From a virus (Duplodnaviria > Caudoviricetes), in the IMG/VR virus record IMGVR_UViG_3300033067_000343, positions 1 to 64,000 of that record: DNA of 64,000 nucleotides. One strand, given 5' to 3'. Positions 8,543 to 62,875 of the stretch are shown here, in pieces. The notes under the pieces were generated by a model. That model was not told where the DNA came from, searched no databases, and saw only the letters and a list, made by a program, of their open reading frames with translations. Made by a program: the position numbers and the translations under genes. The first letter of the stretch is position 1, and the number at the start of each line of letters is the position of its first letter.

Positions 8543-8577
8543 TTAGCATCACACACTATATAATTGTGTGATGCTAA
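8543..8577 (+). promoter_or_regulatory. 13-bp perfect hairpin with TATAAT in the loop and the primase start codon in the 3' arm
   Basis: TTAGCATCACACA (8543-8555) / TGTGTGATGCTAA (8565-8577); TATAAT 8559-8564; ATG 8571. Confidence 0.8.
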
Positions 8578-9629
8578 CAACAATTCAAGACTCGGTAAAA
8601 CAATACCTACCTGCTAAACGTAAGACCAGTTCTAATGGCTGGACTTCGTTTAACGCTGTCTGTTGTGAGCACAACGGTGAGAGCCGAGACAATCGGGGGC
8701 GTGGCGGCGTAATTTCTAATGCCGACGGATCCATATCATACTCTTGTTTCAACTGTAACTTCAAAGCCAACTACACACCAGGACGCCATCTAAACTTTAA
8801 GTTTAGAAAGCTACTGAGTTGGTTAGGAGCCGATGAAAACTCCATCAAGCGTTTGGTAATAGATGCGATCCGTGTTAAAGATCTAATCAGTCCAGAACAA
8901 GTAAAACAAATAGCTGATGAAGAGATTACGTTTAAGCCACGCCCGTTACCCGAGAATACTGTGAGCTTTCAGCAATGGCGAACATTCCTAATGCTGCAAG
9001 ACCCAGACGAGCCCGTTCACCCACAGTTTGTAAAAGCATTTAACTATATCCACGATCGTAAGGTTGATTGGAATCGTTACGAATTATGCACCACAGAAAG
9101 TGAAGCATACAATCTACACAAACGTGTAGTTATTCCATTTAAATGGAAAGGTGAAGTAATTGGATACACAGCAAGAACCTGGGAAGACACAGTCAAGCCC
9201 AAATACCACAACAGTTATGAGCCTAATTTTGTTTTCAATGTGGATAATCAGACTCCTGATAGGAAGTTTGTTCTTGCGATGGAAGGTCCGTTTGATGCGA
9301 TGGCAGTTGACGGTGTTGCTATTTTATCTAACGAGTGCAGTGAAGTTCAAGCTGATATTATTGATAGTCTTGGACGGGACGTCATTGTGGTCCCAGACTT
9401 TGACGTTAAAGAAGTTAAGGGTCGAATGGTATGGGCAGGTGAGCGACTTGTCACACAGGCGCTTGAGTATGGTTGGTCGGTTAGCTTCCCTGTTTGGCGA
9501 GAAGAATGCAAAGACGTAGCAGCCGCAGTACAAAAATACGGTAAATTATTTACGATGAGGGCCATATTAGACGGCCGCGAATCGAGCCGTTTAAAAATAG
9601 AGTTAATGCGTAAACGCATACATAGTTAA
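8568..9629 (+). CDS. DNA primase (gp61-like, Zn-binding + TOPRIM)
   Basis: CCEH...CFNC Zn site; EGPFDA and DFD TOPRIM motifs; adjacent to the helicase; likely start ATG 8571. Confidence 0.85.
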   Translation: MMLTTIQDSVKQYLPAKRKTSSNGWTSFNAVCCEHNGESRDNRGRGGVISNADGSISYSCFNCNFKANYTPGRHLNFKFRKLLSWLGADENSIKRLVIDAIRVKDLISPEQVKQIADEEITFKPRPLPENTVSFQQWRTFLMLQDPDEPVHPQFVKAFNYIHDRKVDWNRYELCTTESEAYNLHKRVVIPFKWKGEVIGYTARTWEDTVKPKYHNSYEPNFVFNVDNQTPDRKFVLAMEGPFDAMAVDGVAILSNECSEVQADIIDSLGRDVIVVPDFDVKEVKGRMVWAGERLVTQALEYGWSVSFPVWREECKDVAAAVQKYGKLFTMRAILDGRESSRLKIELMRKRIHS

Positions 9630-9631
9630 CA

Positions 9632-11074
9632 ATGAATAAAGAATATAACGCAGAAATCCAAAAACTATTTTTAGAGATGATGCTGCAAGACGCCCAAAAT
9701 TTTGTGCGTGTGCAGAACATTTACAACCCAGAAAACTTTGATCGCAGTCTAAGAGAGACTGCAAAGTTTGTTACTGAGTACAGCGACAAATATAAAACGC
9801 TACCGACACCTGAGCAAATTAAGGCAACCACAAGTGTAGAATTAAATCCTGCACCTGAGATGCAAGACCACACTGAGTGGTTCATTAACGAGTTCGAAAA
9901 CTTTACCAAGCGACAAGAACTAGAACGTGCTATTCTAAAGTCGGCCGACATGATTGAGCAGGGAGACTTCTCCCCAATTGAGAAGCTGATCAAGGATGCT
10001 GTACAAATTAGTCTAACAAAAGATCTTGGTACTGACTACTTTGCAAACCCTGCTGAACGTATTAACAAATACTTTAACAGTGGTGGACAAGTTAGCACAG
10101 GGTGGCCGCAGATGGATAGGCTACTATACGGCGGGTTCAGTCGAGGTGAACTAAACATCTTTGCAGGTGGATCGGGTTCGGGTAAGTCACTTGTTATGAT
10201 GAACATTGCACTCAGCTGGTTGCAAATGGGCCTGAGCGGTGTTTACATTACACTTGAACTTTCAGAAGAGTTGTGTTCGTTGCGTACAGACGCTATGTTA
10301 ACCAGCACAGGCACAAAAGACATTCGCAAGGACATTGAGACCACTGAACTTAAAGTTAAGATGGTCGGTAAGAAGTCCGGTAAGTATCGGATCAAAGGTT
10401 TACCTGCACAAAGCAACGTAAACGACATCCGTAGCTTTATTAAAGAGTATCAGATCCAAACAGGTAATACCGTTGACTTTGTTATGGTTGACTATTTGGA
10501 CTTGATTATGCCTGTGAGTGCAAAGGTTAGCCCCAACGACTTGTTTGTTAAGGACAAGTATGTGTCAGAAGAATTACGTAACCTTGCAAAAGAACTAGGA
10601 GTACTATTTGTTACAGCGTCACAGTTGAACCGTAGTGCTGTTGAGGAAGTTGAATTTGACCACTCACACATTTCGGGCGGTATTTCAAAGATTAACACTG
10701 CCGACAACGTGTTTGGTATCTTTACAAGTCGTGCTATGAAAGAGCGTGGCAAGTATCAGATTCAGTGTATGAAGTCACGTAGTTCAACTGGTGTTGGGCA
10801 AAAGATTGACCTTGAGTACAACATCGAAACCATGCGTATTAGTGACCCAGGTATTCCTGAGAACAATGGTGGCGGACCACCTTTAGTTAACAGCATCATG
10901 AATCGCATTAAGAGTACCCCTGCCCCTGCCCCTGCGGCAAGCGACGACGAAGGACCTAGTTCATTCCAACGTGCAACAGGTACACCAGCGTGGGAACAAG
11001 GCCCCAAGGTAACAGCGGATGTGCAAAGCACTAAGCTCAAAAGTATGTTAGCGGGAATTAAAAAAGGAGATTAA
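9632..11074 (+). CDS. replicative DNA helicase (DnaB/gp41-like)
   Basis: GGSGSGKS Walker A, VDYLDL, TASQLNR, ADNV, KSR motifs. Confidence 0.9.
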   Translation: MNKEYNAEIQKLFLEMMLQDAQNFVRVQNIYNPENFDRSLRETAKFVTEYSDKYKTLPTPEQIKATTSVELNPAPEMQDHTEWFINEFENFTKRQELERAILKSADMIEQGDFSPIEKLIKDAVQISLTKDLGTDYFANPAERINKYFNSGGQVSTGWPQMDRLLYGGFSRGELNIFAGGSGSGKSLVMMNIALSWLQMGLSGVYITLELSEELCSLRTDAMLTSTGTKDIRKDIETTELKVKMVGKKSGKYRIKGLPAQSNVNDIRSFIKEYQIQTGNTVDFVMVDYLDLIMPVSAKVSPNDLFVKDKYVSEELRNLAKELGVLFVTASQLNRSAVEEVEFDHSHISGGISKINTADNVFGIFTSRAMKERGKYQIQCMKSRSSTGVGQKIDLEYNIETMRISDPGIPENNGGGPPLVNSIMNRIKSTPAPAPAASDDEGPSSFQRATGTPAWEQGPKVTADVQSTKLKSMLAGIKKGD

Positions 11075-11655
11075 TGAGTTTAGATTTTTCATTAATTGAA
11101 GAAGCTACTCAGTACTCTTTAGCCAAACTATCCTCCTTAGGTATGGCACAAGAAAAGCTGTATCTAGTTGAGGATTTTTTGCACCCTACGTTAATAGACA
11201 AGCTAGTCAAATACGCAGAGACTCGTACAGACTGGGTTGCAGCACAAGGGTACAAAGACATATGCCGTTACCAAGTTAATTGGGAACCCGACTCGGCACT
11301 TGAAGAAACTCACATAGTATTTGAGTACTTAACCGGGTATCTTTCTGTTATGTTTAACCGCACGGTATACTTTCACGGGATTAACTTATGGAAAGATGTT
11401 GAAGGCTACTCAATTAGCAGACACACTGATAATCCTGTTATAGATCTAGCTATACAGCTTTACCTAACATCGGGTCCTGCAGAGCTAGGTACAACGTTTG
11501 AACACAACGGAAAAACACAGGCAAAATACCAACAGAATTGCGGGTATATTGCAGACAACAGTCAAGGACTGTACCACAGTTTAGACACTAAAGTTCCGGC
11601 AGATCATGTGCGATATTCTGTATATGCCATTTGGTCACAAGAACCTAAGAAGTAG
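11074..11655 (+). CDS. 2OG-Fe(II) oxygenase-like protein
   Basis: RHTD...IQLYL...YHS facial-triad pattern. Confidence 0.6.
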   Translation: MSLDFSLIEEATQYSLAKLSSLGMAQEKLYLVEDFLHPTLIDKLVKYAETRTDWVAAQGYKDICRYQVNWEPDSALEETHIVFEYLTGYLSVMFNRTVYFHGINLWKDVEGYSISRHTDNPVIDLAIQLYLTSGPAELGTTFEHNGKTQAKYQQNCGYIADNSQGLYHSLDTKVPADHVRYSVYAIWSQEPKK

Positions 11656-11699
11656 CAAGTTATTGCTAAACCATAAATATAACTAATTGGAGTGATATC

Positions 11700-14417: not shown

Positions 14418-14489
14418 TTAACACCTTTTTTATCAAAAAGATAAATATTTACATGAGGCGATAAGCCCATTAATATTAGGAGAAATAAA

Positions 14490-14852: not shown

Positions 14853-14868
14853 TACTTAATTAAGTAAC

Positions 14869-14893
14869 AAAAAGGCTCTTCGGAGCCTTTTTT
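14869..14893 (+). terminator. rho-independent terminator
   Basis: AAAAAGGCTC-TTCG-GAGCCTTTTTT. Confidence 0.9.
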
Positions 14894-14944
14894 GTTGGCC
14901 GTAAAATCAGTAACTAACTAAATACACTATATTGGAGATATAAC

Positions 14945-15402: not shown

Positions 15403-15430
15403 AAGAAGGCAGTTTCGTGCTGCCTTTTTT
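15403..15430 (+). terminator. rho-independent terminator
   Basis: AAGGCAG-TTTCGTG-CTGCCTT followed by a T run. Confidence 0.85.
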
Positions 15431-15449
15431 CTTGGCCATAAATATCTAC

Positions 15450-15896
15450 ATGGATAGAGGCTTGCAATTTTATACAGGTTACACACTAGTAGACATTACC
15501 GCTACTGGTGTAACTCGCTATAGACCTGATCAAGAATTCCAGCGTAACCAACAACGTAATTGGGAAACCGTATTACAAACAATTGGCTTGCGTACCCAAC
15601 CTGTATTAATCAAGGGCCCAGTTTGTACTGAAAGCACTTTAGGCGACGGTTGGGATTTTGGAGAGTATTACCAGGGACGCCACAAGATTTGGATTTGGAC
15701 TTTTGCAGTAGAGACCACTGATGTCTTTTTGCTTAATGACCATCCGCTTGGTGCGTTAGTTCAAGACTTCGAACAGATACCTATTATCCAAGGATTAGAT
15801 GAAACAGCCCGTTTCATGTTACCTATATTTTACCCACACGGTGCAATCAAAAACGTATACTTTAAAAATCGAGCAATCGATTTAAATAACGTTTAG
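15450..15896 (+). CDS. hypothetical late protein
   Basis: TAAATA 15439-15444; ATG 15450 in frame with the track ORF. Confidence 0.65.
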   Translation: MDRGLQFYTGYTLVDITATGVTRYRPDQEFQRNQQRNWETVLQTIGLRTQPVLIKGPVCTESTLGDGWDFGEYYQGRHKIWIWTFAVETTDVFLLNDHPLGALVQDFEQIPIIQGLDETARFMLPIFYPHGAIKNVYFKNRAIDLNNV

Positions 15897-18074: not shown

Positions 18075-18113
18075 ATATCATACTTGTAGTTTAGATAATT
18101 ACAAGTATGATAT
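18075..18113 (+). promoter_or_regulatory. 14-bp perfect hairpin covering the start codon at 18107
   Basis: ATATCATACTTGTA (18075-18088) / TACAAGTATGATAT (18100-18113); GATAAT in the loop. Confidence 0.75.
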
Positions 18114-19189
18114 TAGTTTACAGCGACAGCCAAATCATTGACAATGAATGGCTACCACACATAAATTTCAAAACCCCTTACACACTATCTCACAGCATTG
18201 ATGAGTTTGAAGCAGCAGAAGCCTCGCTAAAGGTTGCGTTCACTACACATCGTTTGCACTGTGACTTTGATACTGCGTACATTGGGTTTGAAGATAAAAT
18301 CAATCGTTTAAGTTACATCAGTGACTTGGTGTTTACTTTTGAAAGTGAACTCCACAACTTCCATTGGCAAATTTGGGAAAAGTGCCACCATGACAATGTG
18401 TACTGGCTATTACCCGGTGCCGTAAATGATCGTGATGACATTAACAGTCACATTATTTGCTGGGGCGATTGGTTTAAAACCACAGCCAACATTTACAAAG
18501 CATTACCGGACAAGGTGTTGAACATTAACCCATATAGCACAAAGCCCAAATACTTTGATGCATTGCTAGGTAGTCCAAAGCCACATAGAGACTTTGTGTT
18601 TAATGCAGTTAATGAAAATGACCTAAACCACAAGATTATTATGACTTACGGTGGCGACTGGAAAGAAGGCGAATTCTACGCCAAGGATTACTTTATCTGG
18701 GAAGAAGGCACAACACCAATTGGACAAACAATCGGCACAGCAGACTGGGCAGACTATTGCGGGCAACGTGTGCATCTAAGCCAAATTATTCCTATTAAAG
18801 TGATGAATGACAGTGCCTATTCTATCATTGCCGAAACAGACTTTGACAACACCCTAAGTTGCTTCACAGAAAAAACAGCAAAGCCAATGATTGCTAGACG
18901 TTTGTTTATTGCATTCACTGGATACAAGTTCTTGCACAATCTACGTGCGTTAGGATTCCAAACATTTGACGGAATCATTGATGAAAGCTACGACTTAGAG
19001 ATCGACGATGCTAAACGCTACGCAATGGCGTTTGAACAAGTTAAGTATTTGTGTGAGCAAGAACAAGATGTGGTCTACCGGAAAATTAAATCCATTGTAG
19101 ACCACAACTATAATTTACTAATGACTCGAGACTGGACGCAATGGCCAGCAAAACAAATCGAAACAGTTATTAACTCTTTATCTGTTTAG
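18107..19189 (+). CDS. glycosyltransferase-like protein, paralog 1
   Basis: AET...TEKTAKP...LGFQTFDGIIDESYD block shared with the 46955 and 53755 genes; ET...TEK resembles GT10-type motif. Confidence 0.5.
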   Translation: MILVYSDSQIIDNEWLPHINFKTPYTLSHSIDEFEAAEASLKVAFTTHRLHCDFDTAYIGFEDKINRLSYISDLVFTFESELHNFHWQIWEKCHHDNVYWLLPGAVNDRDDINSHIICWGDWFKTTANIYKALPDKVLNINPYSTKPKYFDALLGSPKPHRDFVFNAVNENDLNHKIIMTYGGDWKEGEFYAKDYFIWEEGTTPIGQTIGTADWADYCGQRVHLSQIIPIKVMNDSAYSIIAETDFDNTLSCFTEKTAKPMIARRLFIAFTGYKFLHNLRALGFQTFDGIIDESYDLEIDDAKRYAMAFEQVKYLCEQEQDVVYRKIKSIVDHNYNLLMTRDWTQWPAKQIETVINSLSV

Positions 19190-19922
19190 TAACATATTCT
19201 GCCCAGGCTTGGTGTGCTTTGTGTCCTGGGTGGAATCCATCTTCCATAAAATCATTCATGCTCTTGGCCAATTCATAAAGGCCATTACGCTCTGCATCTG
19301 TAAAGATCCACTTGTCTAGTTCGAGCTCTCTGATCATTGAATGTAGTCCGGGCATTGCTGTTACGCCAAAGTCGCCATTGGGACTAACGTTCTTCTTATC
19401 GTTCCAGTAGTTTACGTAACTCATAAACTTGTACTTGATACCTTTCGCTTCCAAGAAGTTTTTGAGCTTAACCATTTCAGTAATGTTAATGGTTGCTAAA
19501 CTGTAGTCACTGGACACTTTGTACATTTCGTAGAACATCTTATGTGCAACAGGGTTCTTAAACCATGTGCCCATTTGACCACCGCTGAAAATATAACCTA
19601 GTTGATTGTCGGGTAGCCTACGATAAAACCCATAACTGTCAAACAATTCGTTCCACGATGGGTCAGTGATGTCAGTTAAGTAATCTAATCGACTCACGCC
19701 ACTCCACATTACTAGAACTTGATCGTACTTGCCCGGATTGTCTAGCACTTCTCTGATAACGCTATCTGCGATGTATTGATTACCTGCCGCTGCTTCTGCG
19801 AGATTGGTAATCTCGTCGGTTGGGTTCATCTCACTAAAGTATCTTGGCCAACATACATTGGGTCCGCCGGGGAAATCGGGCCATTGACTAAAACTGCATC
19901 CGGATATTAGAATTTTCATCAA
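19170..19922 (-). CDS. SGNH/GDSL hydrolase-like protein
   Basis: GCSFS block I, AGN block II, DGFHP block V; minus-strand TAAATA at 19925-19930. Confidence 0.6.
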   Translation of the reverse strand: MMKILISGCSFSQWPDFPGGPNVCWPRYFSEMNPTDEITNLAEAAAGNQYIADSVIREVLDNPGKYDQVLVMWSGVSRLDYLTDITDPSWNELFDSYGFYRRLPDNQLGYIFSGGQMGTWFKNPVAHKMFYEMYKVSSDYSLATINITEMVKLKNFLEAKGIKYKFMSYVNYWNDKKNVSPNGDFGVTAMPGLHSMIRELELDKWIFTDAERNGLYELAKSMNDFMEDGFHPGHKAHQAWAEYVTKQIKS

Positions 19923-19930
19923 AATATTTA

Positions 19931-19959
19931 TTGACTAATCCTTTTGTAACATTTATAAT
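19931..19959 (+). promoter_or_regulatory. sigma70-type promoter, probably giving a leaderless mRNA
   Basis: TTGACT-N17-TATAAT; ATG begins 6 nt after the -10 box. Confidence 0.75.
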
Positions 19960-19964
19960 TACAT

Positions 19965-20675
19965 ATGATCATTCAACGTTACAACTACGAACCACTTAAT
20001 AGAACCACAGTAGAAGGCAAGAGACATTATTGTTTACCAGACGGCAGTAAAGTTCCTAGCGTTACAACTATTCTAGATAAAACAAAAAGCCAGGAATCCA
20101 AAATAGCTCTTGCAAACTGGAAAAAACGAGTTGGTGAACAACAAGCTCAACAAATTGTTACTGAAGCGGCTAACCGCGGAACCAGGATGCATGCATACCT
20201 TGAACAGTATATCCTTCAAGATGACATGAAGCCGTTGCCCGATAATCCTTTTGCCCACCCTAGTTGGTTTATGGCAGCAGAAGTTATTCTTAAAGGACTT
20301 GTAAATGTAGACGAGTTTTGGGGTACAGAAGTTCCTGTTTATTATAGTGGGTTATATGCTGGCACCACAGACTGCTTAGGTGTGTGGAAAGGCAGGCCCG
20401 CAATCATGGACTTTAAGCAAAGTAACAAGGTCAAGAAGCGTGAATACATTTCTGATTACTTTTTGCAATTAGCAGCCTATGCAGCAGCACATAATGAAAC
20501 GTATGGTACCAATATACGTGACGGTGTAATTTTGATGGCTGTGCAGCCAAAACAGCTAGAAGATGGCACCTTTTCGGCGCCAGAATACCTGGAATTTGAA
20601 GTCTCAGGAGACGAGTTTGACCACTGGAGCCAAGAGTGGATGAAACGTGTGGAGCTCTATTATCTAACTAACTAA
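19965..20675 (+). CDS. PD-(D/E)xK exonuclease
   Basis: GTRMH, AGTTDC, IMDFKQS, QLAAY motifs. Confidence 0.8.
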   Translation: MIIQRYNYEPLNRTTVEGKRHYCLPDGSKVPSVTTILDKTKSQESKIALANWKKRVGEQQAQQIVTEAANRGTRMHAYLEQYILQDDMKPLPDNPFAHPSWFMAAEVILKGLVNVDEFWGTEVPVYYSGLYAGTTDCLGVWKGRPAIMDFKQSNKVKKREYISDYFLQLAAYAAAHNETYGTNIRDGVILMAVQPKQLEDGTFSAPEYLEFEVSGDEFDHWSQEWMKRVELYYLTN

Positions 20676-20691
20676 ATACACAATAGTTAGA
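20663..20691 (+). promoter_or_regulatory. hairpin with late-type TAAATA in the loop, partly covering the SD of the 20702 gene
   Basis: TCTAACTA (20663-20670) / TAGTTAGA (20684-20691); TAAATA 20673-20678. Confidence 0.6.
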
Positions 20692-30528: not shown

Positions 30529-30549
30529 TCATGCTATAATACAGCATGA
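30529..30549 (+). promoter_or_regulatory. 7-bp hairpin with TATAAT in the loop, covering ATG 30546
   Basis: TCATGCT / AGCATGA; extended -10 TGCTATAAT. Confidence 0.6.
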
Positions 30550-30710: not shown

Positions 30711-30747
30711 TTTGTGCTATAATCTAAGCATTGTTAAACAAAACGGA
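30711..30747 (+). repeat. 37-bp early promoter/leader, copy 1
   Basis: TTTGTGCTATAATCTAAGCATTGTTAAACAAAACGGA identical to 59208-59244. Confidence 0.85.
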
Positions 30748-31945: not shown

Positions 31946-31971
31946 ACCCGCCTTTGTGCGGGTTTCCTTTT
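31946..31971 (+). terminator. probable rho-independent terminator
   Basis: ACCCGC-CTTTGT-GCGGGT followed by TTCCTTTT. Confidence 0.6.
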
Positions 31972-31988
31972 GGCCGGCTAAATACACT

Positions 31989-32186
31989 ATGAGCTACTCT
32001 TACCAACAATCGTTTAATGCCACGCTTAACGCCCTTCCTAAAGATCAGCGTAGAGACTACAAACTTGCAAACATTGCAGCAGTTGACCGCCAACAAGTAG
32101 GCACACCTAGTTACAGAGAGTACAACCAATATACCAGCCCGGGAACTGTTGCGCCAGCAGAAGGTCGCCCGTGGACTAAACTATAA
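31989..32186 (+). CDS. hypothetical late protein
   Basis: TAAATA 31979-31984; ATG 31989. Confidence 0.6.
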   Translation: MSYSYQQSFNATLNALPKDQRRDYKLANIAAVDRQQVGTPSYREYNQYTSPGTVAPAEGRPWTKL

Positions 32187-34603: not shown

Positions 34604-34629
34604 TAGCCAGAACTTTTGACTTCGCCCAC

Positions 34630-34678
34630 ATCATAACGTATACTACGGGACTAAAACCCAATAAATATACGTTATGAT
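34630..34678 (+). promoter_or_regulatory. 13-bp perfect hairpin covering ATG 34674, with late-type TAAATA at the loop/3' arm junction
   Basis: ATCATAACGTATA (34630-34642) / TATACGTTATGAT (34666-34678); TAAATA 34662-34667. Confidence 0.8.
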
Positions 34679-36365: not shown

Positions 36366-36745
36366 CAACCAATTTTATAACACCACCGGACTTTGTAGAA
36401 GATCCGAACCATACTATTCTGCTAATTGATGCAGACCCTGTTGATGTAGAAACATTGGCTTACCTGTGTGCAGGACACGAAGAAGCATTTAACGTTTATT
36501 TGTATCGTGAAGATATGGATAACGATCTTTGGCTCAATCAAGTTGCTGACCGTGCTGATACAATTATCGTAAATACTATAGATAACAAACTAAGTATCAT
36601 TAAAGATAATTTTATTGACTTTCAAAAAACTTATTACTATGGACCCAAGCATTTCTTGCATAACACAAGACGATGCGAAACTCTATTAGATTATTTTGTA
36701 ATTCGAGCTAATGACAGAAAACATCAAACTCCAAGTCCATTGTAA
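36362..36745 (+). CDS. hypothetical protein
   Basis: ATGA-coupled ORF. Confidence 0.65.
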   Translation: MTTNFITPPDFVEDPNHTILLIDADPVDVETLAYLCAGHEEAFNVYLYREDMDNDLWLNQVADRADTIIVNTIDNKLSIIKDNFIDFQKTYYYGPKHFLHNTRRCETLLDYFVIRANDRKHQTPSPL

Positions 36746-37919
36746 CTTCTGCGGTAAGAACCGTAATGAAGTAGATAAACTAATTGTTGCAAACGATGCA
36801 GGTATCTGTAACGAGTGCATCAGCTTATGCAGTAACATCATTAACAAAGAGCGTAATGATGAGTTCCGCAAAGACAAAAAGGTCAGTAAAGCACTAGACC
36901 CTATTAAGATTAAGAACCACCTCGACGAGTATGTGATTGGGCAGGATGCTGCTAAGATTGCCCTAAGCGTTGGCGTTGTTAATCACTACAAACGCATCTT
37001 CTTTGAAAGTGCAGTAGAGCTAGAGAAGTCAAACATTCTAGTATTTGGGCCAACAGGATCGGGTAAAACACTGTTAGCCAAAACAATTGCACGTTACCTA
37101 AACGTTCCATTTGTTGTAGCAGATGCAACTACCTTAACTGAAGCAGGATACGTAGGCGACGATGTGGAAAGCATTATTGGTGGACTGCTATCCGCAGCAG
37201 ACAATGACGTTGCACGTTGTGAGCAGGGCATTATCTTCCTAGACGAAGTAGACAAGATTGCCCGAAAAAGCGAAGGCGCAAGTATTACCCGCGACGTAAG
37301 TGGCGAAGGTGTACAGCAAGCTCTACTAAAGCTAGTAGAAGGCACCAAGTGCAAGGTAAGTGTAAACGGTGGCAAGAAGCATCCTGCATTGGATCAAGTG
37401 GAAATTGATACAAGCAAGATTCTGTTTGTTGCAGGTGGTGCATTTCCGGGACTAGAGAAACTAGTGGAACGTAGACAGCGTGGATCTAACATTGGATTTA
37501 ACGGCCCACTATCAACTGAGAATTTAGACAGCACACAAGTTACGCCCGAAGACTTTATCAAGTTTGGAATGATTCCCGAATTCTGCGGACGTTTTCCTAT
37601 TACAGTTCAAATCGATGAGCTAACTGTAGACGACTTTATTCGGATTCTCAAAGAACCTAAAAACAACTTGCTGGCACAAATGAAGTTCTATTTTGAAAGC
37701 GACGAAATAGAATTAACGTTTACAGACGATGCAGTGTTAGCAGTAGCAGAATTGGCGCATGAGCAGCATGTAGGTGCTCGTGGACTAAAAACCATATTAG
37801 AGCGTACTCTAATGCCCTACATGTACACCCTAGCTGAAATTAAAAAGCAGGGGTTTAAAAAGATCGAAATAACTGACAAAGTTGTTAAATATAACGATCC
37901 ACCCAATTTTATAGAATAA
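36711..37919 (+). CDS. clpX: ATP-dependent Clp protease ATP-binding subunit ClpX
   Basis: CNFC...CNEC Zn domain, [12 protein letters not shown] pore loop, [22 protein letters not shown] loop, GARGL. Confidence 0.95.
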
Positions 37920-37927: not shown

Positions 37928-38161
37928 ATGAACGAACGAATCAAATTACACGGCAGCAGCGTACTCGTACAAAACGATAACGTTGAAAAAGCACTTCGCA
38001 AATTTAAAAAGAAAATCATGGAAAGCGGTAAGCTACAAGAGCTACGTGAACGTGAGTTTTATGAGAAGCCAACTACTGCCCGTAAACGTGCAAAAAATCA
38101 AGCCCGCAGACGCTGGCAAAAGAAGCTTGAATCACAAGCTCTACCAAAAAAATTGTATTAA
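37928..38161 (+). CDS. rpsU: 30S ribosomal protein bS21
   Basis: VEKALRKFKKK, REREFYEKPTTARKR. Confidence 0.92.
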   Translation: MNERIKLHGSSVLVQNDNVEKALRKFKKKIMESGKLQELREREFYEKPTTARKRAKNQARRRWQKKLESQALPKKLY

Positions 38162-38180
38162 TACTTTTTTGAAAGTATAA

Positions 38181-38252
38181 TAAATACATGTGCAGTGCCA
38201 ATAATGGGCTGCACACTAAACGTCATAAACTTGCTTATTAAAGGAGAAAAAC
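38181..38252 (+). promoter_or_regulatory. late promoter plus structured 5' UTR with ROSE-like RNA thermometer hairpin
   Basis: TAAATA 38181; stem TGTGCAG/CTGCACA; CUUGCUU-AUUA-AAGGAG pairs the SD with a bulged G. Confidence 0.6.
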
Positions 38253-38699
38253 ATGACACAATTCAACATCCGTACTCTAGACCTACCTTCCCTACATCGT
38301 TCAGCCATTGGCTTTGACCGCATGTTTGAGGAATTGAATCGCACCTTTGCAAACAGCAAACAAGGTAACTATCCTCCACACAATATTGTCCAACAAGACG
38401 ATACCCATTTTGTGGTTGAAGTTGCTGTAGCTGGCTTCGCAGAAAGCGAAATCAATGTAGAACTAGCAGACAATGTTCTTACCGTAACTGGTGAAAAAGT
38501 TCGCAGCGAAGATGAAGTAGCTCCGAATTACCTACACCAAGGCATCAGCAATCGCAATTTCGTTCGCAGCTTTACTCTAGCTGACAACGTTGAAGTTCGC
38601 GAAGCTGTTGTTGAAAACGGTATCCTTTCGGTTAACTTGGAACTGGTTATCCCAGAAGAAAAGAAGCCGAAAACTATTGCATTGACTTTTAAGAAGTAA
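38253..38699 (+). CDS. small heat-shock protein Hsp20 (IbpA/B-like)
   Basis: IGFDRMF, YPPHNI, AVAGF, YLHQGIS.RNF.RSF, NGILSV. Confidence 0.93.
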   Translation: MTQFNIRTLDLPSLHRSAIGFDRMFEELNRTFANSKQGNYPPHNIVQQDDTHFVVEVAVAGFAESEINVELADNVLTVTGEKVRSEDEVAPNYLHQGISNRNFVRSFTLADNVEVREAVVENGILSVNLELVIPEEKKPKTIALTFKK

Positions 38700-38716
38700 T
38701 CAGCTATAATGCAATA

Positions 38717-38742
38717 TACACAGAGCAATCACGCTCTGTGTA
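38717..38742 (+). promoter_or_regulatory. 10-bp hairpin between hsp20 and clpS (terminator or leader structure)
   Basis: TACACAGAGC / GCTCTGTGTA; TATAAT upstream at 38705-38710; U-rich downstream. Confidence 0.55.
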
Positions 38743-42429: not shown

Positions 42430-42456
42430 CTCCTTACTTGTAAATAGAGTAAGGAG
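42430..42456 (+). promoter_or_regulatory. 9-bp perfect anti-SD hairpin with TAAATA in the loop
   Basis: CTCCTTACT (42430-42438) / AGTAAGGAG (42448-42456); TAAATA 42441-42446. Confidence 0.8.
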
Positions 42457-42463: not shown

Positions 42464-42601
42464 ATGAGCTGGTTTAAACGCAGACCTAGGACTCGAGACC
42501 CTATCAAAACGCCACCACGTGACGTTAGTCCATTAACAGAAAAGCTCTTAGAGGAATCTAAGCAAGCAATTCGAACCACAAAACCCAAGAAATATAAGTA
42601 G
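42464..42601 (+). CDS. small basic protein (45 aa, below track cutoff)
   Basis: MSWFKRRPRTRDPIK...KKYK*; strong SD and late promoter. Confidence 0.65.
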   Translation: MSWFKRRPRTRDPIKTPPRDVSPLTEKLLEESKQAIRTTKPKKYK

Positions 42602-42621: not shown

Positions 42622-42677
42622 CTCTGTAAATAATAATAAGCATTTTTCAACAACAACAAGAAAAATTATTACAGGAG
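42622..42677 (+). promoter_or_regulatory. late promoter overlapping an anti-SD stem; leader loop with (AAC)n
   Basis: CTCTGTAAATAAT pairs ATTATTACAGGAG; inner TTTTTC-AACAACAACAA-GAAAAA. Confidence 0.55.
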
Positions 42678-52543: not shown

Positions 52544-52564
52544 ACATGCTATAATGCAGCATGT
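52544..52564 (+). promoter_or_regulatory. 7-bp hairpin with TATAAT in the loop, covering ATG 52561
   Basis: ACATGCT / AGCATGT; TGCTATAAT. Confidence 0.6.
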
Positions 52565-55633: not shown

Positions 55634-55656
55634 AAACCCGCTTCGGCGGGTTTTTT
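55634..55656 (+). terminator. rho-independent terminator
   Basis: AAACCCGC-TTCG-GCGGGTTTTTT. Confidence 0.9.
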
Positions 55657-55682
55657 AATGGCCAAACGTGCTACAATTAGGC

Positions 55683-56015
55683 ATGACAAAATACTTAGGC
55701 GAAACTCCTGTAGACATTGCAACCCACCCTGAGTACAGTAAGTACACCGCAAAGGATTGGGCTATGCTGTGCATTTACTTATATGGTGCAATTGATGGTG
55801 CCCATCACAAACAATGGGTCATTGATCGAGTTACACGAGTTCTCAACGGCGTTGTTCCCACTGTTACACTTGCGGCATGGTCCAATGGTGCAGAAGATTA
55901 TCGATATAACTTTGACGGCACTAGCCCCGAGTACGAAGCGTTTGTGCTTAAATGCACAGACCCAGATAAAGACGGCGAACCACAGTACGATTACGATGAA
56001 GGAATTGCACCATGA
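55683..56015 (+). CDS. hypothetical early protein
   Basis: TGCTACAAT ends 55677; ATG 55683; DGAHHKQW motif. Confidence 0.65.
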   Translation: MTKYLGETPVDIATHPEYSKYTAKDWAMLCIYLYGAIDGAHHKQWVIDRVTRVLNGVVPTVTLAAWSNGAEDYRYNFDGTSPEYEAFVLKCTDPDKDGEPQYDYDEGIAP

Positions 56016-56847: not shown

Positions 56848-56848
56848 T

Positions 56849-57982: not shown

Positions 57983-57990
57983 GGAAATAT

Positions 57991-58194: not shown

Positions 58195-58196
58195 CT

Positions 58197-59165
58197 ATGG
58201 GATGCTGGAATCAAACTTGTGGACTTTCTCAACTGCACATTCGTCATGGACAAGACGTGATGGTGGTTGCTCTTGTAAAGAACAACGGATACGATAGCCT
58301 TTGCTACACTACACCGTTTTGGGCTCCTGTGATGATGCCGTTCTACGCCAAGTACAACGACTACGGCGGTGGCGAAGACTGTACTGGCGTTGGCCTCAAC
58401 ATTGTGATGAACGCGATTAAAGAAGAATTGATTGAGCTGCCACAAGGTGCAAATCAATTCCATGACATCGCTGTTAAGAAGGAAGGATTTGACGACGAAG
58501 TGTTCTTTGAAGCTGTGCATGAAGGTCGCTTGTTTGTTAAAGGGCTCCATGAGCGCCAACGTCAACATGTGGAATTCGTTATGCTCCACATGGGTGTTGT
58601 TAATCACATTCTTGAGAACCGCAAGATCGAACGTTACGTTGGAGCAAACAATGGCACCACTGGCTGGGACAATGCCTATGTTGAATACTCATTCAAAGAT
58701 GTGTTAGCTGACTTGCCAGCATGTGTTGCTCAAATGTTTGAGCAATACGCAGATGAAAGCAACCCATTGCGATACTACGAACCTCTTCGTTCTCTGCGCC
58801 GCATGAATGATCGCGAAGGCAACCAAGTTAACCACGCTGCCAGCTTGCTCAGTATGGACGAGTATCGTTTCAGCGGGTTGGTTCGTGTTAACTTTTTGGT
58901 AGATGACTACCTTAAGTCCAACGATCGTGCAGGGCTTACTGAGCTGTTAGCAGAGAATCTCAAAGCACTGTGGATTGATAGCTTTATGCTTTCTACTCGC
59001 AAGTTTTGGAGTCCGCAGGCAGGTGCAGGTAGCCAACAGCAAGAACCCGAAGGTTACGAGCTGCTCATTGGCGCCATGCAGAATGTACTTGCTGCTGAAA
59101 AGCGTGAGTATGACGAAGAAAACGACGAAGTAGAGCCAGAAGTAGAGCTAGAAGCTACTACTTAA
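58197..59165 (+). CDS. hypothetical protein
   Basis: 322-aa ORF; MGCWNQTCGLS N-terminus. Confidence 0.75.
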   Translation: MGCWNQTCGLSQLHIRHGQDVMVVALVKNNGYDSLCYTTPFWAPVMMPFYAKYNDYGGGEDCTGVGLNIVMNAIKEELIELPQGANQFHDIAVKKEGFDDEVFFEAVHEGRLFVKGLHERQRQHVEFVMLHMGVVNHILENRKIERYVGANNGTTGWDNAYVEYSFKDVLADLPACVAQMFEQYADESNPLRYYEPLRSLRRMNDREGNQVNHAASLLSMDEYRFSGLVRVNFLVDDYLKSNDRAGLTELLAENLKALWIDSFMLSTRKFWSPQAGAGSQQQEPEGYELLIGAMQNVLAAEKREYDEENDEVEPEVELEATT

Positions 59166-59207
59166 GTATTACAAAATTTTTGTAATTTTTGGTTGCAGAT
59201 AATCCGT

Positions 59208-59244
59208 TTTGTGCTATAATCTAAGCATTGTTAAACAAAACGGA
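59208..59244 (+). repeat. 37-bp early promoter/leader, copy 2
   Basis: Identical to 30711-30747. Confidence 0.85.
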
Positions 59245-59252
59245 TCTGCAAA

Positions 59253-59516
59253 ATGGCTAAACCCAATCACTACATTGCAACAGTTGAGTTCACCCTAGGT
59301 GGTATTCCTTGCCAAATTGGCGTAATCAGTTATGATTGCGTTGAGGGTTCTTACTCGTACAATGCGGCCAGCGATTGGGATTACCATGGCTACACCGATC
59401 TGGAATATGATATTCTGGACCGCAAAGGCTATCGTGCAAAGTGGCTTGATTACAAGCTCGACAGTGATGCCGAAGCTGAGATTGAAGAAGCAGTAGCAAA
59501 TTATTTCAAGGATTAA
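59253..59516 (+). CDS. hypothetical early protein
   Basis: Follows the duplicated promoter. Confidence 0.7.
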   Translation: MAKPNHYIATVEFTLGGIPCQIGVISYDCVEGSYSYNAASDWDYHGYTDLEYDILDRKGYRAKWLDYKLDSDAEAEIEEAVANYFKD

Positions 59517-59552
59517 CACTGTTTCGAAATTCGAGATAGTGTATAATACGGT

Positions 59553-59711
59553 ATGAAAAAGCAGAATCCGATTAGAATTGAAGCACCCAAACGCCGTTCG
59601 CATCGGGCACTGTTTGATCCGACACTACCGTTCCGCCCCAAGGTGGAGAAAAGTGTCAAAGCCTATGTTCGTAAACCCAAGCATCCTAAAGGAGATCCTG
59701 ATGCAACTTAA
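59553..59711 (+). CDS. ArfA-like alternative ribosome rescue factor (52 aa, below track cutoff)
   Basis: ALFDPTLPFRPKVEKSVKAYVRKPKH resembles the ArfA core; TATAAT 59542-59547 just upstream. Confidence 0.55.
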   Translation: MKKQNPIRIEAPKRRSHRALFDPTLPFRPKVEKSVKAYVRKPKHPKGDPDAT

Positions 59712-59883
59712 CCAAGCTGAACGCTTCGCAAATGAAGCAGTGTTTGTTCTTCAATTTAACAGCCGCGATGCTGTACGCTATATTCAGCGTAACGCAGGCG
59801 TGGAGAAGAAGGATGCAGAAGCAGCCTTCAAGCGTGTGGTAACGTTCCACAAGCCAGCAAAATGTCAGCCCGTTGCTGCCTAA
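59701..59883 (+). CDS. hypothetical protein
   Basis: SD AAGGAG; ATG 59701 in frame with the track ORF. Confidence 0.6.
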   Translation: MQLNQAERFANEAVFVLQFNSRDAVRYIQRNAGVEKKDAEAAFKRVVTFHKPAKCQPVAA

Positions 59884-60098
59884 TACTTGCTTTGTTGCTA
59901 GCGGGGTGTGCAACACAGCATCGCCCCAGCTACGACAAAACAGTAACAGACTTGGTGCCTGACTGCGCCAATAAAGATGCTCAGATCCGCTACCTTACAA
60001 AACTTAAACGTTTTCCTGCTAAGTTAGAAGACGACGAGCTGTTGTATAATCAAACAATTAACATTCAAATCCAACGTTTACAATGGTACTGCCGATGA
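59862..60098 (+). CDS. small lipoprotein
   Basis: Lipobox LLAGC. Confidence 0.7.
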   Translation: MSARCCLILALLLAGCATQHRPSYDKTVTDLVPDCANKDAQIRYLTKLKRFPAKLEDDELLYNQTINIQIQRLQWYCR

Positions 60099-60538
60099 AA
60101 TTGTTATTTGTTTTCGCTGCTGTATTGCTTGCAGGATGCACAACACCATCCCGCATGAATGTACAGGACCTCAATCACTATCAAATTGATTGCAGTCGCC
60201 GCGAAGAACAGTTAGCATTTTTACAAGGCTTTTTCCCAACCCCAAATGAACGTATTGTTAATGGTTTACGTATCACAAGCCCGCTAGGTATTGTGGACAC
60301 CACAGCAGATGGGACATACTATGAAGAACGTGCAATGTACGACCGCCGGCAAGAATCTGCTGCCCGTGTTATCATTCATCAAATCCATTCGTATTGCCCT
60401 GCGCCGCGACCACAGCCACAAGGTTGTGTACACATCAATGAAACTTTCCCGGCTGGAAGCAGTCAAGGAGCCCGTTGCTATCAAAAATCTAATCCAAAAC
60501 CTGTGGTAAATCGCTGGGAAGTGGTTAGTCCGAAATGA
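60095..60538 (+). CDS. lipoprotein
   Basis: MKLLFVFAAVLLAGC lipobox. Confidence 0.72.
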   Translation: MKLLFVFAAVLLAGCTTPSRMNVQDLNHYQIDCSRREEQLAFLQGFFPTPNERIVNGLRITSPLGIVDTTADGTYYEERAMYDRRQESAARVIIHQIHSYCPAPRPQPQGCVHINETFPAGSSQGARCYQKSNPKPVVNRWEVVSPK

Positions 60539-60584
60539 TAGTTGTGTTATAATTTGTATATCTTAACAACCGAAAGGTAAAATC

Positions 60585-61286
60585 ATGAAACGTATCGCAT
60601 CAATCGCCGCAGTGCTCGCTCTCGCAGCTTGTTCAACTGCTCAACCTGTAGCACAAGCCCCTGCCCCAAAGCCCGTTTACGCAAACGCAGGCGAAGCAGC
60701 GGCACAGAATGTCATTGACAATGTGCCTGAGTGGTTTGTGGATGTTCCTAAAAAGGACAATGTGATTTACGCAGTTGGCGATGGCGTGAGTGGTAGCCTT
60801 TCGGGTGCCATTGGCAATGCTCGTGCTAACGCATTTGAAGGCATTTGCCAAGCAGCAGGTGGTAAGGTTCGCAGCCAAACTAAAGTGTATCGCCAAGATA
60901 CCGAAGCTTCAAGCACTAGCGTTACAACTACTGCGATCCGCAACATTTGCCCGGACGTGGATGTAACTGGTGCAAACGTTGAAAAACGCCATGTAATCCG
61001 TGATGGCAATCGTTTCCGTGCATACGTGCTAGTTGGGTTACCGGTAGGCGAAGCCAATAAGCTGGCTCGCACCAAGCAAATGGACAAACTGCAAGAACGT
61101 GCAATGGCTAACCGCGAACGTGAGTTCAAAGAGCTGGATAACATTGTGGACGGCAAAGCAGCAGAGCCTGCAAGCAAAGTTGAAGGTATTACACTGATGC
61201 CTGTGGACAATGAAGAATACAAGCGTAAGCGTGATGCTGCACTGCAAAAAGAAGGCGCTGTAATCGGGCAAACTGTAGTTCGTTAA
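60585..61286 (+). CDS. lipoprotein, LPP20-like
   Basis: LALAAC lipobox; VPEWF, YAVGDG motifs. Confidence 0.72.
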   Translation: MKRIASIAAVLALAACSTAQPVAQAPAPKPVYANAGEAAAQNVIDNVPEWFVDVPKKDNVIYAVGDGVSGSLSGAIGNARANAFEGICQAAGGKVRSQTKVYRQDTEASSTSVTTTAIRNICPDVDVTGANVEKRHVIRDGNRFRAYVLVGLPVGEANKLARTKQMDKLQERAMANREREFKELDNIVDGKAAEPASKVEGITLMPVDNEEYKRKRDAALQKEGAVIGQTVVR

Positions 61287-61296
61287 ACGCTAGTAT

Positions 61297-61341
61297 AAAA
61301 AGCTCTCCTGCGGTAGTTAAATACCGTAGCGAGGGCTTTTT
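61297..61341 (+). promoter_or_regulatory. 19-bp hairpin (terminator-like) with TAAATA at the loop and the SD of the next gene in the 3' arm
   Basis: AAAAAGCTCTCCTGCGGTA / TACCGTAGCGAGGGCTTTTT (two G-U pairs, one bulge); TAAATA 61318-61323; GAGG 61331-61334. Confidence 0.75.
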
Positions 61342-61342
61342 C

Positions 61343-61840
61343 ATGGCTAGACCGAATCCTATACGCAGTATAATGGCGCAAGCGTTACCCAGCATAACGT
61401 ACCAACGCCGCAAGAGTTTCCGACCCACAAACGCAGATGTAACGTATGCTTACAACATCATTAACAGATATGTTTTTGATGGCGTTTTAACCAAGCCCAC
61501 AATACAGCAAGGACGCATTCCTAAGTGTTGGGGAACATGCTATTGGCTAGAACAAGAACAAAACACTGGATCCTGGTGCCGCATTAAGCTAGTGGATAAA
61601 TGGTTCTGCGAGCAGTGGTTCATGAACACACTTGCACACGAAATGGTACATCAATACCAATGGGACATAGACCGTTGGGAACACATTGATTACTATGGCA
61701 GGGACATACACCAAAACAGTGGCGGGCATGGGCCTAGCTTCTATGAATGGCGTGAACGTTTTACCCACTATGGACTTAACCTAAAGATATCGTTTGGACA
61801 AAAACGCTGGTTCAAACACCAAGATTTCACTAAGTGCTAA
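61343..61840 (+). CDS. SprT-like zinc metalloprotease domain protein
   Basis: LAHEMVHQ, HGPSF motifs. Confidence 0.75.
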   Translation: MARPNPIRSIMAQALPSITYQRRKSFRPTNADVTYAYNIINRYVFDGVLTKPTIQQGRIPKCWGTCYWLEQEQNTGSWCRIKLVDKWFCEQWFMNTLAHEMVHQYQWDIDRWEHIDYYGRDIHQNSGGHGPSFYEWRERFTHYGLNLKISFGQKRWFKHQDFTKC

Positions 61841-61846
61841 TTCAAA

Positions 61847-61883
61847 TCCTGTTATAATAGTGGTTCAATAACTACTAACAGGA
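61847..61883 (+). promoter_or_regulatory. anti-SD hairpin overlapping the clpP TATAAT promoter
   Basis: TCCTGTTA (61847-61854) / TAACAGGA (61876-61883), inner TAGT/ACTA; TATAAT 61853-61858. Confidence 0.7.
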
Positions 61884-61887
61884 CACT

Positions 61888-62511
61888 ATGCCTAACTTTG
61901 TACCTACCGTACTCGAAAAAACCGCTAACGGCGAACGTGCCTACGACATCTACAGTCGTTTGCTCAAAGATCGCATTGTTATGTTGGACACAGACGTAAG
62001 CGAGCATTCTGCTAGCTTGGTCGTTGCTCAAATGCTTTTCCTTGAAAGTGAGAATCCCGATGCCGATATCCTCTTCTACATCAATTCACCCGGTGGCCTC
62101 GTCACTGCTGGCTTGGCAATCTATGATACTATGCAGTTCATTAAGCCTGATGTTTCTACCATTGTACTTGGCCAAGCCTGCTCTATGGGAAGTTTCCTTG
62201 CCCAAGCAGGAGCCCCAGGCAAACGACTAGTATTGCCCGAAAGCCGCACAATGATTCACCGTGTTAGCTCAGGTACTCCTAGCACACGTGGTTCTGTGCA
62301 TGTGCAAGAACTGCAATTTGAAGATGCAAAACGCAGCTTCGAAGAAAGCCAACGCTTGAATCAGCGACTGACTGAACTGTATGTTAAGCACAACACCAAG
62401 GGCAAAACATACGACGAAATGTTTGGCACCATGAAGTTTGACACATTCCTTTCTGCCCAAGAAGCAGTGGACATGGGTCTTGCTGATGAAGTGGTATCTA
62501 AGCGCCCATAA
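61888..62511 (+). CDS. clpP: ATP-dependent Clp protease proteolytic subunit
   Basis: [24 protein letters not shown] (Ser), MIH (His), DTFLSA (Asp). Confidence 0.95.
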
Positions 62512-62822
62512 TGGCTGTTTTTGACATAACCCCCAACATACTCAAGGCCCACGGCGTTTACGATCCGTATAACCGTGACCCAATTACTCTACGATCTGCT
62601 ATGAGCAGCATTCGCGAGTGGTTAGAGGACAATGTTGGGGAATGTTACGGCCCCGGGGATGATCACGTTGTGACTATTGGGGCAGGGTGGGAGATATTTA
62701 GGATGTACGATGGCAAGCCTAGGCTCCCGCGGGGAGATCAAGATACTTCAATTACGTGGCACGTAGACATTACCGACGAGCAAAAGGCCGTGATGTTTGC
62801 ACTTAGATGGACCACTAAGTAG
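62511..62822 (+). CDS. hypothetical protein
   Basis: TAATG-coupled; C-terminal MFALRW. Confidence 0.6.
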   Translation: MAVFDITPNILKAHGVYDPYNRDPITLRSAMSSIREWLEDNVGECYGPGDDHVVTIGAGWEIFRMYDGKPRLPRGDQDTSITWHVDITDEQKAVMFALRWTTK

Positions 62823-62855
62823 AAACCATGAGAGGATGTTGCATCGCAGCATAAA

Positions 62856-62875
62856 TATTAGTACAAATACTAATA
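62856..62875 (+). promoter_or_regulatory. 8-bp hairpin overlapping the late promoter, adjacent to the SD
   Basis: TATTAGTA-CAAA-TACTAATA; TAAATA 62852-62857; AAGGA follows. Confidence 0.5.

Follow-up and report, generated by a model that had tools for sequence, protein, structure and literature searches.

The window analyzed here, the first 64 kb of an 81,246-bp virus contig from IMG/VR (CheckV completeness, 23%), is part of the genome of an uncultured jumbo phage, and its subject is a set of gene starts at which a promoter sits inside an inverted repeat whose 3′ arm takes in the start codon or the Shine-Dalgarno (SD) sequence of the gene that follows. The + strand carries nearly all genes, at a GC content of 42-46%. 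Among the genes that we recognized are those for a UvsW-like helicase, a primase, DnaB, the large subunit of ribonucleotide reductase, a ClpX-like ATPase (36711-37919), ribosomal protein S21 (bS21; 37928-38161, Pfam E = 4e-17), a tail-fiber-like protein, and ClpP (61888-62511, E = 8e-61). Contigs of 240-374 kb occur among the relatives, which were retrieved through three of the contig's proteins. Judged by DnaB, the nearest isolates are Pseudomonas phage PA5oct (46% amino acid identity), Atu_ph07, and Rak2-like jumbo phages, all of them distant; phage-database searches with a 997-amino acid protein and with 15 kb of the DNA gave no match, and an Rfam search of the window gave no hit. The ClpX-like protein is ~50% identical to proteins of many Clostridia and of one gammaproteobacterium, which is uninformative on the host.

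Two types of promoter box recur, and the phage appears to use host sigma70-type promoters (TTGACA-17-TATAAT) together with putative late promoters like those of T4 (TAAATA). The late assignment of TAAATA fits the weak matches to a T4 gp55-like sigma factor in two complete relatives (E = 3.5e-6 and 7e-6); a gp55-type sigma had no match in a third relative, nor in this 23%-complete fragment. We ruled out promoters of a phiKZ-type phage RNA polymerase, given that the large proteins returned no RNA polymerase hits and that PA5oct reportedly relies on the host RNA polymerase (PMC7318152), and also N4-type hairpin promoters, given the clear −35 and −10 boxes and the lack, in the list of open reading frames (ORFs), of any frame large enough for an N4-type virion RNA polymerase.

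The distances from all TATAAT and TAAATA boxes of the contig to the nearest following ATG form a histogram with a sharp peak at 5-6 nucleotides (nt), made up on the + strand by 10 of 31 TATAAT and 6 of 35 TAAATA boxes and on the − strand by 2, i.e., 18 cases where, by our estimate, ~3.4 would be expected. The −10 box of a sigma70 promoter lies at −12 to −7 and the T4 late box at −13 to −6, and from this established geometry a spacing of 5-6 nt would place +1 on the A of the ATG. Across all starts of this kind, the box (TATAAT or the T4-like TAAATA) ends 4-7 nt before the ATG and no SD is present, so that the local transcript should begin on or next to the AUG, that is, be leaderless. The pattern occurs in 17 of 125 genes, or about one in eight by the crude gene calls made on the contig (starts at 8571, 15450, 18107, 19919 on the − strand, 19965, 30546, 31989, 34674, 52561, 55683, 59553, 69454, 72678, 75908 on the − strand, 76099, 77235, and 80070), and some 60 others have an SD. 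These calls demanded an ATG, and their AUG starts are therefore not an independent test. The initial annotation had described five of the sites as having a buried start codon and missed their leaderless design: all five are without any SD, with a −10 or late box that ends 5-7 nt before the ATG. Calls that take the longest ORF put starts at GTG 8568, 15417, and 31956 and at TTG 77145, inside terminators or promoters; the true starts are likely the conserved ATGs at 8571, 15450, 31989, and 77235.

A −10-like box ~10 nt before the start codon is an accepted in silico sign of leaderless genes (PMC3160421), and leaderless initiation is reported, in the citation of Brock et al. (2008) given in PMC5312081, to depend on a 5′-terminal AUG. 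Leaderless transcription units account for most transcripts in the Thermus phages phiYS40 and Lalka27a, whose host phylum is commonly leaderless (bioRxiv 10.64898/2026.04.20.719267). Like these phages and bacterial leaderless genes, the window has a −10 box at a fixed short distance from the initiator codon. Unlike the Thermus phages, it has the pattern in only ~10-13% of genes, with an SD in the rest, and it also uses the T4-like late box.

The spacing is directly seen to be conserved, both in PA5oct and across hundreds of contigs from related jumbo phages. The distance peak remained in the loci of 115 relatives with the query genes left out, and a complete 354-kb relative (G001) displayed the same peak, with 18 cases of TATAAT at 6 nt and 25 of TAAATA at 4-5 nt. 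Some 50 primase orthologs (58-89% amino acid identity) keep the order TTGAnn, ~17 nt, TATAAT/TATACT/TAAAAT, 6-7 nt, ATG ahead of a conserved N-terminus (MLTT/MLNT), and ATG is the start codon in all 49 unique orthologs that have the promoter. One clade instead has this ATG overlapping an upstream stop codon (TAATG), which establishes it as the primase's true start. TAAATA-N5-7-ATG is likewise kept in orthologs of gene 34674 (38-77% identity), often with a sigma70 promoter ~20 nt further upstream, and in the terminator-TAAATATCTACATG cassette before gene 15450 the TAAATATCTACATG is invariant in relatives at 79-97% identity; gene 18107 has three orthologs located within an operon, and these start with TTG. 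Hence, the putative leaderless spacing is a deeply conserved rule, and the predicted hairpin described below is a recurrent but sporadic add-on.

PA5oct resembles the window at its primase gene gp261 (L264 2418-2449), where 6 nt separate a consensus extended −10 sigma70 promoter (TTGACA-17-TATAAT) from the annotated start and a 6-bp stem, including one G·U pair, surrounds the −10. It differs in that this start is annotated as GTG, an exception to the AUG-start rule for leaderless genes, and in that TATAAT-N5-6-ATG is genome-wide only ~1.8-fold above control. The PA5oct paper reports TATAATA and TTGAC promoter motifs and mentions neither leaderless mRNAs nor promoter hairpins (PMC7318152). On the minus strand of G001, we also noted at least eight near-identical early cassettes (TTGACC.AAATGG...TGCTATAATACA..CATG, at 25555, 25855, 131117, 133362, 134997, 158605, 161493, and 202848), each 5-6 nt before the ATG of a small gene, which on their sequence are a leaderless promoter cassette family.

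A few arrangements around these starts deserve separate mention. The phage's canonical terminators have GC-rich stems, TTCG loops, and T-runs. Downstream of five intrinsic terminators (14866-14896, 15420-15445, 31960-31985, 55634-55672, and contig 71643-71684), which commonly have TTCG loops, TTGGCC, TGGCC, or TTGGC appears within a few bases and precedes TAAATA or a −10 box. Relatives show the same order, which may represent an extended element of the late promoter or a fixed cassette of terminator and promoter. At 14442-14464, contig 71233-71301, and 38176-38190, a box is followed at 5-6 nt by an ATG that opens a mini-ORF only: one, of 3 codons (ATG AGG CGA TAA), precedes the SD-led gene 14490, another, of 18 codons, overlaps the SD and start of gene 71294, and a third sits downstream of the S21 gene. 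Such ATGs may start leaderless upstream mini-ORFs or may fall by chance at the head of ordinary 5′ leaders. Within the 3′ end of gene 18107-19189, a 10-bp perfect stem is followed by TATAAT and, 6 nt later, by the in-frame ATG 19121 (19069-19123); the stem is kept in the close relatives L084, L087, and L088, and a convergent gene lies on the opposite strand. This ATG could be the internal leaderless start of a 22-amino acid C-terminal peptide, or the promoter may be of unclear use.

The 11 inverted repeats that the initial annotation had listed are all present, and their geometry is as described there, with the promoter box (by motif position, relative to predicted starts) in the loop or 5′ arm and the start codon or SD in the 3′ arm (Table 1). 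They do combine with both late (TAAATA) and early (TATAAT) types of box, as had been noted.

Table 1. Promoter hairpins, terminators, and leaderless starts in the window (positions of the window; distances run from the end of the box to the ATG).
Position	Strand	Feature	Elements
8536-8577	+	Primase promoter-hairpin	−35 TTGAGT 8536-8541, 17-nt spacer, −10 TATAAT 8559-8564, 6 nt, ATG 8571
15439-15452	+	Putative leaderless late start, no hairpin	Terminator, TAAATA, 5 nt, ATG 15450
18075-18113	+	14-bp perfect stem	−10-like GATAAT 18094-18099 in loop; ATG 18107 in 3′ arm, 7 nt past box
19919-19967	−	Putative divergent leaderless pair, minus side	TAAATA, 5 nt, ATG 19919
19919-19967	+	Putative divergent leaderless pair, plus side	TTGACT-17-TATAAT (box 19954-19959), 5 nt, ATG 19965
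20663-20691	+	8-bp stem	TAAATA 20673-20678 in loop; 3′ arm runs into SD GAGGA; ATG 20702, tail-fiber-like gene
30529-30549	+	7-bp stem around TGCTATAAT	Box 30535-30540, 5 nt, ATG 30546, 41-amino acid ORF
31979-31991	+	Putative leaderless late start behind terminator	TAAATA, 4 nt, ATG 31989
34616-34678	+	Tandem promoters and stem	TTGACT 34616-34621, 17 nt, TATACT 34639-34644, late box TAAATA 34662-34667, 6 nt, ATG 34674
38675-38742	+	Additional site	First stem encloses TTGACT-17-TATAAT (box 38705-38710)
42430-42456	+	9-10 bp stem	TAAATA 42441-42446 in loop; SD AAGGAG 42451-42456 in 3′ arm; ATG 42464, 45-amino acid ORF
42622-42677	+	Claimed long-range stem, weak	Before ATG 42685
52544-52564	+	Near-identical copy of 30529 cassette	Box 52550-52555, ATG 52561, 73-amino acid ORF
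55672-55685	+	Putative leaderless start behind terminator	gTGcTACAAT, 5 nt, ATG 55683
59202-59245	+	Additional site	11-bp stem enclosing GTGCTATAAT; ATG 59253 lies 8 nt past the stem
59542-59555	+	Putative leaderless start, 52-amino acid ORF	TATAAT, 5 nt, ATG 59553
61297-61341	+	Intrinsic terminator	19-bp GC-rich stem, 2 G·U, then TTTTT; TAAATA 61318-61323 in loop; SD GAGGG in 3′ arm; ATG 61343
61847-61883	+	Two-tier stem before clpP	TATAAT 61853-61858 in 5′ side and loop; SD AGGA in 3′ arm; ATG 61888
62838-62893	+	Outer helix burying AUG 62887	~62838-62850 with 62880-62893; encloses late box TAAATA 62852-62857 and inner stem 62856-62875

The excess of such stems was apparent in several counts on the contig. 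The whole 81 kb contain 64 perfect stems with ≥8 bp and a loop of 3-30 nt, and only three of these reach 13-14 bp (8543, 18075, and 34630), while we estimate that ~0.06 stems of ≥13 bp would be expected. Stems enclosing a promoter box were found at p ≤ 0.05 for 10 of the 45 intergenic TATAAT-like or TAAATA boxes (2.3 expected) and at p ≤ 0.01 for 7 (0.45 expected), and pairing of the start or SD exceeded shuffled-upstream controls (p ≤ 0.05) at 9 of 55 gene starts with a spacer of ≥20 nt (2.8 expected). The AUG had a pairing probability of ≥0.95 in 7 of the 17 leaderless genes, against 9% in the null (p = 4e-4). This probability was 0.64-1.0 for leaderless genes directly behind a co-oriented gene with no terminator between and had a median of 0.41 for those behind a terminator or a divergent gene (p = 0.003 for this post hoc contrast among 17 genes).

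Site by site, the three long stems and about six others stand above chance. The fold z-scores, taken against dinucleotide shuffles, are biased upward because the stretches were picked for being palindromes. The primase stem pairs 8543-8555 with 8565-8577 in 13 perfect base pairs, with the AUG inside the 3′ arm (−17.4 kcal/mol, z = −7.3); the fold at 18075-18113 has 17 pairs (z = −7.3), and the 13-bp perfect stem at gene 34674 joins 34630-34642 to 34666-34678 (z = −5.9). The short stem at 30529-30549 gave a start-pairing probability of 1.0 (p = 0.02; z = −3.5), and its copy at 52544-52564 had an enclosing stem at p = 0.004 and an AUG-pairing probability of 0.98, with a fold z of only −1.8 on its own. 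At 8543, 18075, 30529, 34630, and 52544, the stretch from the upstream gene to the hairpin holds no terminator. At 55683, the AUG is covered by a small G·U-containing stem (pairing probability, 0.98), and overall the AUG was paired with a probability of ≥0.98 at 8571, 18107, 30546, 34674, 52561, 55683, and 69454.

Pairing takes in the SD at 42464, 20702, and 61888. The stem enclosing the box reached p = 0.002 at 42430-42456 (z = −4.5) and p = 0.004 at 20663-20691, where start/SD pairing reached p = 0.02; at 61847-61883, start/SD pairing reached p = 0.01. Fold z-scores ranged from −4 to −4.7 at the last two sites and at 62856-62875. At the latter, the inner stem that had been claimed is weak and AT-only, but the outer helix (62838-62893) buries the AUG, with a minimum free energy (MFE) of −21.9 against −8.0 in the null (p = 0.005). 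The stem at 61297-61341 has the box and SD attributed to it (−26.8 kcal/mol, z = −6.8; the sense strand is 9.5 kcal/mol more stable than the antisense) but is an intrinsic terminator; a simple promoter and terminator scan of 59000-63200 stayed at shuffle level and missed this terminator. The claim fails at 42622-42677, which is at chance (p = 0.47; −5.4 kcal/mol, z = −2.0), with 12 of 200 shuffles folding equally well.

Two sites had escaped the initial annotation. At 59202-59245, the box-enclosing stem has p = 0.002 (z = −6.2). Its 37 bp at 59208-59244, which hold the GTGCTATAAT promoter and the beginning of the 5′ leader, recur exactly at 30711-30747; the two copies stand ahead of small genes that are unrelated, and this repeat looks like a mobile regulatory cassette in the style of the promoter-early stem-loops (PeSLs) discussed below. 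The site at 38675-38742 folds at −24.6 kcal/mol (z = −5.2). There, a second stem of 10 bp (38717-38742) begins at about the predicted transcription start, with GTG 38738 or ATG 38759 downstream and no SD; it would possibly form a 5′-terminal hairpin on the local transcript and stabilize it.

Covariation was assessed by a half-swap comparison of 49 unique primase upstream regions (−30 to +9), in which chimeras were built from 5′ and 3′ halves taken from different orthologs. The best perfect stem averaged 5.84 bp in the real sequences and 4.51 ± 0.15 bp in the chimeras, and the mean MFE was −8.76 as compared to −4.79 ± 0.32 kcal/mol; 0 of 300 swaps reached the real value in either measure. Arm complementarity within each ortholog, lost in chimeras, is thus an observed property of this set. 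At least 10 distinct arm sequences pair across the AUG, and the arms vary by clade while still pairing across or next to the ATG (TTAGCATCACACA/TGTGTGATGCTAA, AGCATCT/AGATGCT, ACATTCCT/AGGAATGT, TAGAACAA/TTGTTCTA, and GTTAAC/GTTAAC), with a helix register that shifts by 1-2 nt between orthologs and a 3′ arm that abuts or covers the AUG in ~43 of 49. The sense RNA exceeded the antisense in stability by a mean of 1.3 kcal/mol (p = 0.017), and single mismatches inside the helices were G·U in 12 cases versus A·C in 3, a bias that modestly favors an RNA structure on the coding strand. Relatedness among the primase sequences was only partly controlled, which makes the covariation evidence modest.

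The covariation check that had been proposed thus gave modest support for the primase. For ClpP, in a comparison limited by anti-SD arms that the sequences share, SD pairing showed no excess over chimeras (0.409 versus 0.433 for all sequences; 0.556 versus 0.517 ± 0.031 for those with a box), and the overall MFE was lower than in the chimeras, a value that 0 of 200 swaps attained. Strong stems at genes 18107 and 34674 occur in the closest clade only, where the arms are fixed and the loops vary: five close relatives have the arms of 18075 unchanged and an altered loop, including a 3-nt insertion, and the stem of 34674 is limited to the window, L101, and L106. The hairpin of 18075 is missing where gene 18107 is coupled to the upstream ORF. 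A few distant clades (L133, L135, and L137) have their own, different AUG-pairing arms, and at 20663 the relative L091 retains the stem via an A-to-G change that gives a G·U pair.

We give an even chance to the reading that the hairpin insulates against read-through by hiding the AUG or SD, as in the T4 genes e, soc, 49, and I-TevI. The inverted repeat brackets the box, with its 5′ arm ahead of the predicted transcription start and its 3′ arm over the AUG (or, in leadered genes, the SD). With the 5′ arm upstream of the predicted start, the hairpin could form only in RNA that reads through from upstream. Such long transcripts would have their start site buried and would also lack the 5′-terminal AUG that leaderless initiation needs, and the gene would be expressed solely from its own promoter, in its own time class. 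We infer the transcription start sites, the read-through RNA, and the silencing at the level of translation from the sequence.

The T4 precedent invoked by the initial annotation is real. At the T4 genes e, soc, 49, and I-TevI, RNA initiated upstream folds so that the SD and/or AUG is held in a hairpin, and the late promoter (TATAAATA) lies inside the structure, such that late transcripts are without the 5′ arm and are translated (PMC3014915). The window's sites at 34630, 42430, 20663, and 62838-62893 share this geometry, with TAAATA boxes. They differ in that T4 late messages keep an SD leader, whereas several window sites have none (box 4-7 nt from the ATG), and in that the window design also occurs with sigma70-type boxes.

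Several observations weigh against this insulator reading. Initiation at an internal AUG that lacks an SD is poor to begin with, which makes it questionable what a hairpin would add, and many ortholog stems have only 4-6 AT-rich base pairs, weak for any function. Sense and antisense folds of the window's own sites were no different (p = 0.52), as its stems are mostly perfect palindromes, and the strand evidence hence rests on one ortholog set. The enrichment over shuffled controls found in the contig did not extend to G001, where AUG-burying hairpins occur at 6 of 34 leaderless candidates (null, 11%; p = 0.16), although G001 does hold a few long promoter-enclosing stems of the same design; the contrast between exposed and terminator-protected genes, post hoc in the window, was absent in G001, where upstream context was crudely classed. 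With such a hairpin at only about one-fifth of promoters (~10 of 45) and at 7 of 17 leaderless genes, the hairpins are an optional layer, and the genome-wide rule that had been proposed is not upheld. Lastly, in phages RB49 and phi1, the stem-loop of a PeSL may lie between or over the −35 and −10 boxes, and one such stem-loop cut lacZ expression like a strong terminator (PMC2839356).

PeSLs, the closer precedent where promoters are of the sigma70 type, provide the main alternative, one that we consider unlikely, with a real chance of being right: the stem-loop would attenuate or terminate transcription that enters from upstream, or shield the upstream message at its 3′ end, with its overlap of the start codon a by-product of tight packing; the repeated cassettes may also act as recombination joints. 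As PeSL stem-loops behave as terminators (PMC2839356), silencing may be transcriptional and not translational. Each PeSL of RB49 and phi1 is an intergenic unit in which a strong sigma70-like promoter is joined by a stem-loop, which can extend over the −35 or −10 box (Arbiol et al. 2010, PMC2839356); PeSLs are repeated in the genome ahead of small ORFs and are thought to insulate against upstream transcription, and their stems, often polyG/polyC and assayed as terminators, are followed by an SD and then the start codon (PMC2839356). The window similarly has intergenic, repeated cassettes of sigma70-like promoter and stem-loop (30711-30747 equals 59208-59244, and 30529 resembles 52544) ahead of small ORFs, and G001 has its comparable leaderless family. 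The hairpins occupy the spacer immediately behind the upstream stop codon, 61297-61341 is a true terminator carrying a late box in its loop, and leaderless genes with a canonical terminator are mostly without a hairpin, which fits this alternative equally well.

In the window, however, the long stems are rich in AT, and the sequences behind them (CAACAATTC, TAGTTTACA, and ATTCGGATA) have no T-run, in contrast to the phage's canonical terminators; ortholog stems of 4-6 AT-rich pairs are unable to terminate transcription. Moreover, the window's 3′ arms lie over the AUG of leaderless genes, and the same position recurs in most primase orthologs. The SD-then-start ending of a PeSL is found at 61888 but not at 8571, 18107, 30546, 34674, or 52561, which have no SD and an ATG within the stem. 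PeSLs are not described with late promoters, and the late-box sites resemble the T4 gene e design instead.

We consider it quite improbable that the repeats act as DNA, either as operators for dimeric regulators or by cruciform or hairpin extrusion that alters promoter melting. The stems are centered on the −10, those of the window are perfectly Watson-Crick without strand asymmetry, and promoter symmetry can itself make palindromes, as in the 12-bp palindrome of G001 that amounts to two divergent TAAATA boxes. That palindrome (L345 5177-5213) is perfect, with TAAATA in each arm and an ATG 8-9 nt past each end on opposite strands, and looks like a symmetric divergent late-promoter pair. Against a DNA-level role, the arms are wholly different between sites and between orthologs and the loops vary from 7 to 23 nt, which does not suit one common binding protein; short stems are unable to extrude from a DNA duplex; and the G·U over A·C bias and sense stability in the primase orthologs point to RNA. 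A single operator protein for all sites was ruled out on the unrelated arms.

A different role, which we regard as a long shot, is two-channel translation, where the leaderless set, under early and late promoters, would be read preferentially by ribosomes remodeled by phage translation genes including bS21, and the hairpins would either keep the set dependent on 5′-terminal AUGs or be processing sites that turn read-through RNA into leaderless mRNA. The presence of a phage S21 gene beside many leaderless genes raises the question whether the phage alters ribosomal start-site selection.

That the hairpins have no dedicated function, with the weaker repeats arising by chance in AT-rich spacers or from duplicated cassettes and the leaderless spacing alone selected, is very improbable: the chance-level stem at 42622-42677, the low z-score of 52544 taken alone (−1.8), the lack of enrichment in G001, and the loss of the hairpin in most distant orthologs of genes 18107 and 34674 speak for it, but it is opposed by the three perfect 13-14 bp stems, the seven box-enclosing stems at p ≤ 0.01, the failure of any of 300 swaps to reach the real primase values, and the distant clades (L133, L135, and L137; primase orthologs) that evolved their own AUG-pairing arms independently.

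Overall, the window's sites are best described as putative promoter-in-hairpin insulators of the T4 and PeSL types joined to predicted leaderless units with sigma70-type and T4-like late promoters; we found no description of leaderless starts from T4-type late promoters in the papers that we could search. For annotation, gene callers that expect an SD will misplace such starts, as at GTG 8568, 15417, and 31956 and TTG 77145. If the AUG is indeed where transcripts begin, a very large, widespread group of uncultured jumbo phages, represented by hundreds of IMG/VR contigs and with a culturable relative in PA5oct, which infects P. aeruginosa, uses leaderless mRNAs for about one-tenth of its genes. 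The promoter-in-hairpin arrangement would tie T4 translational gating and PeSL cassettes to leaderless initiation, in a design where the position of the RNA 5′ end alone would separate translatable from silent RNA.

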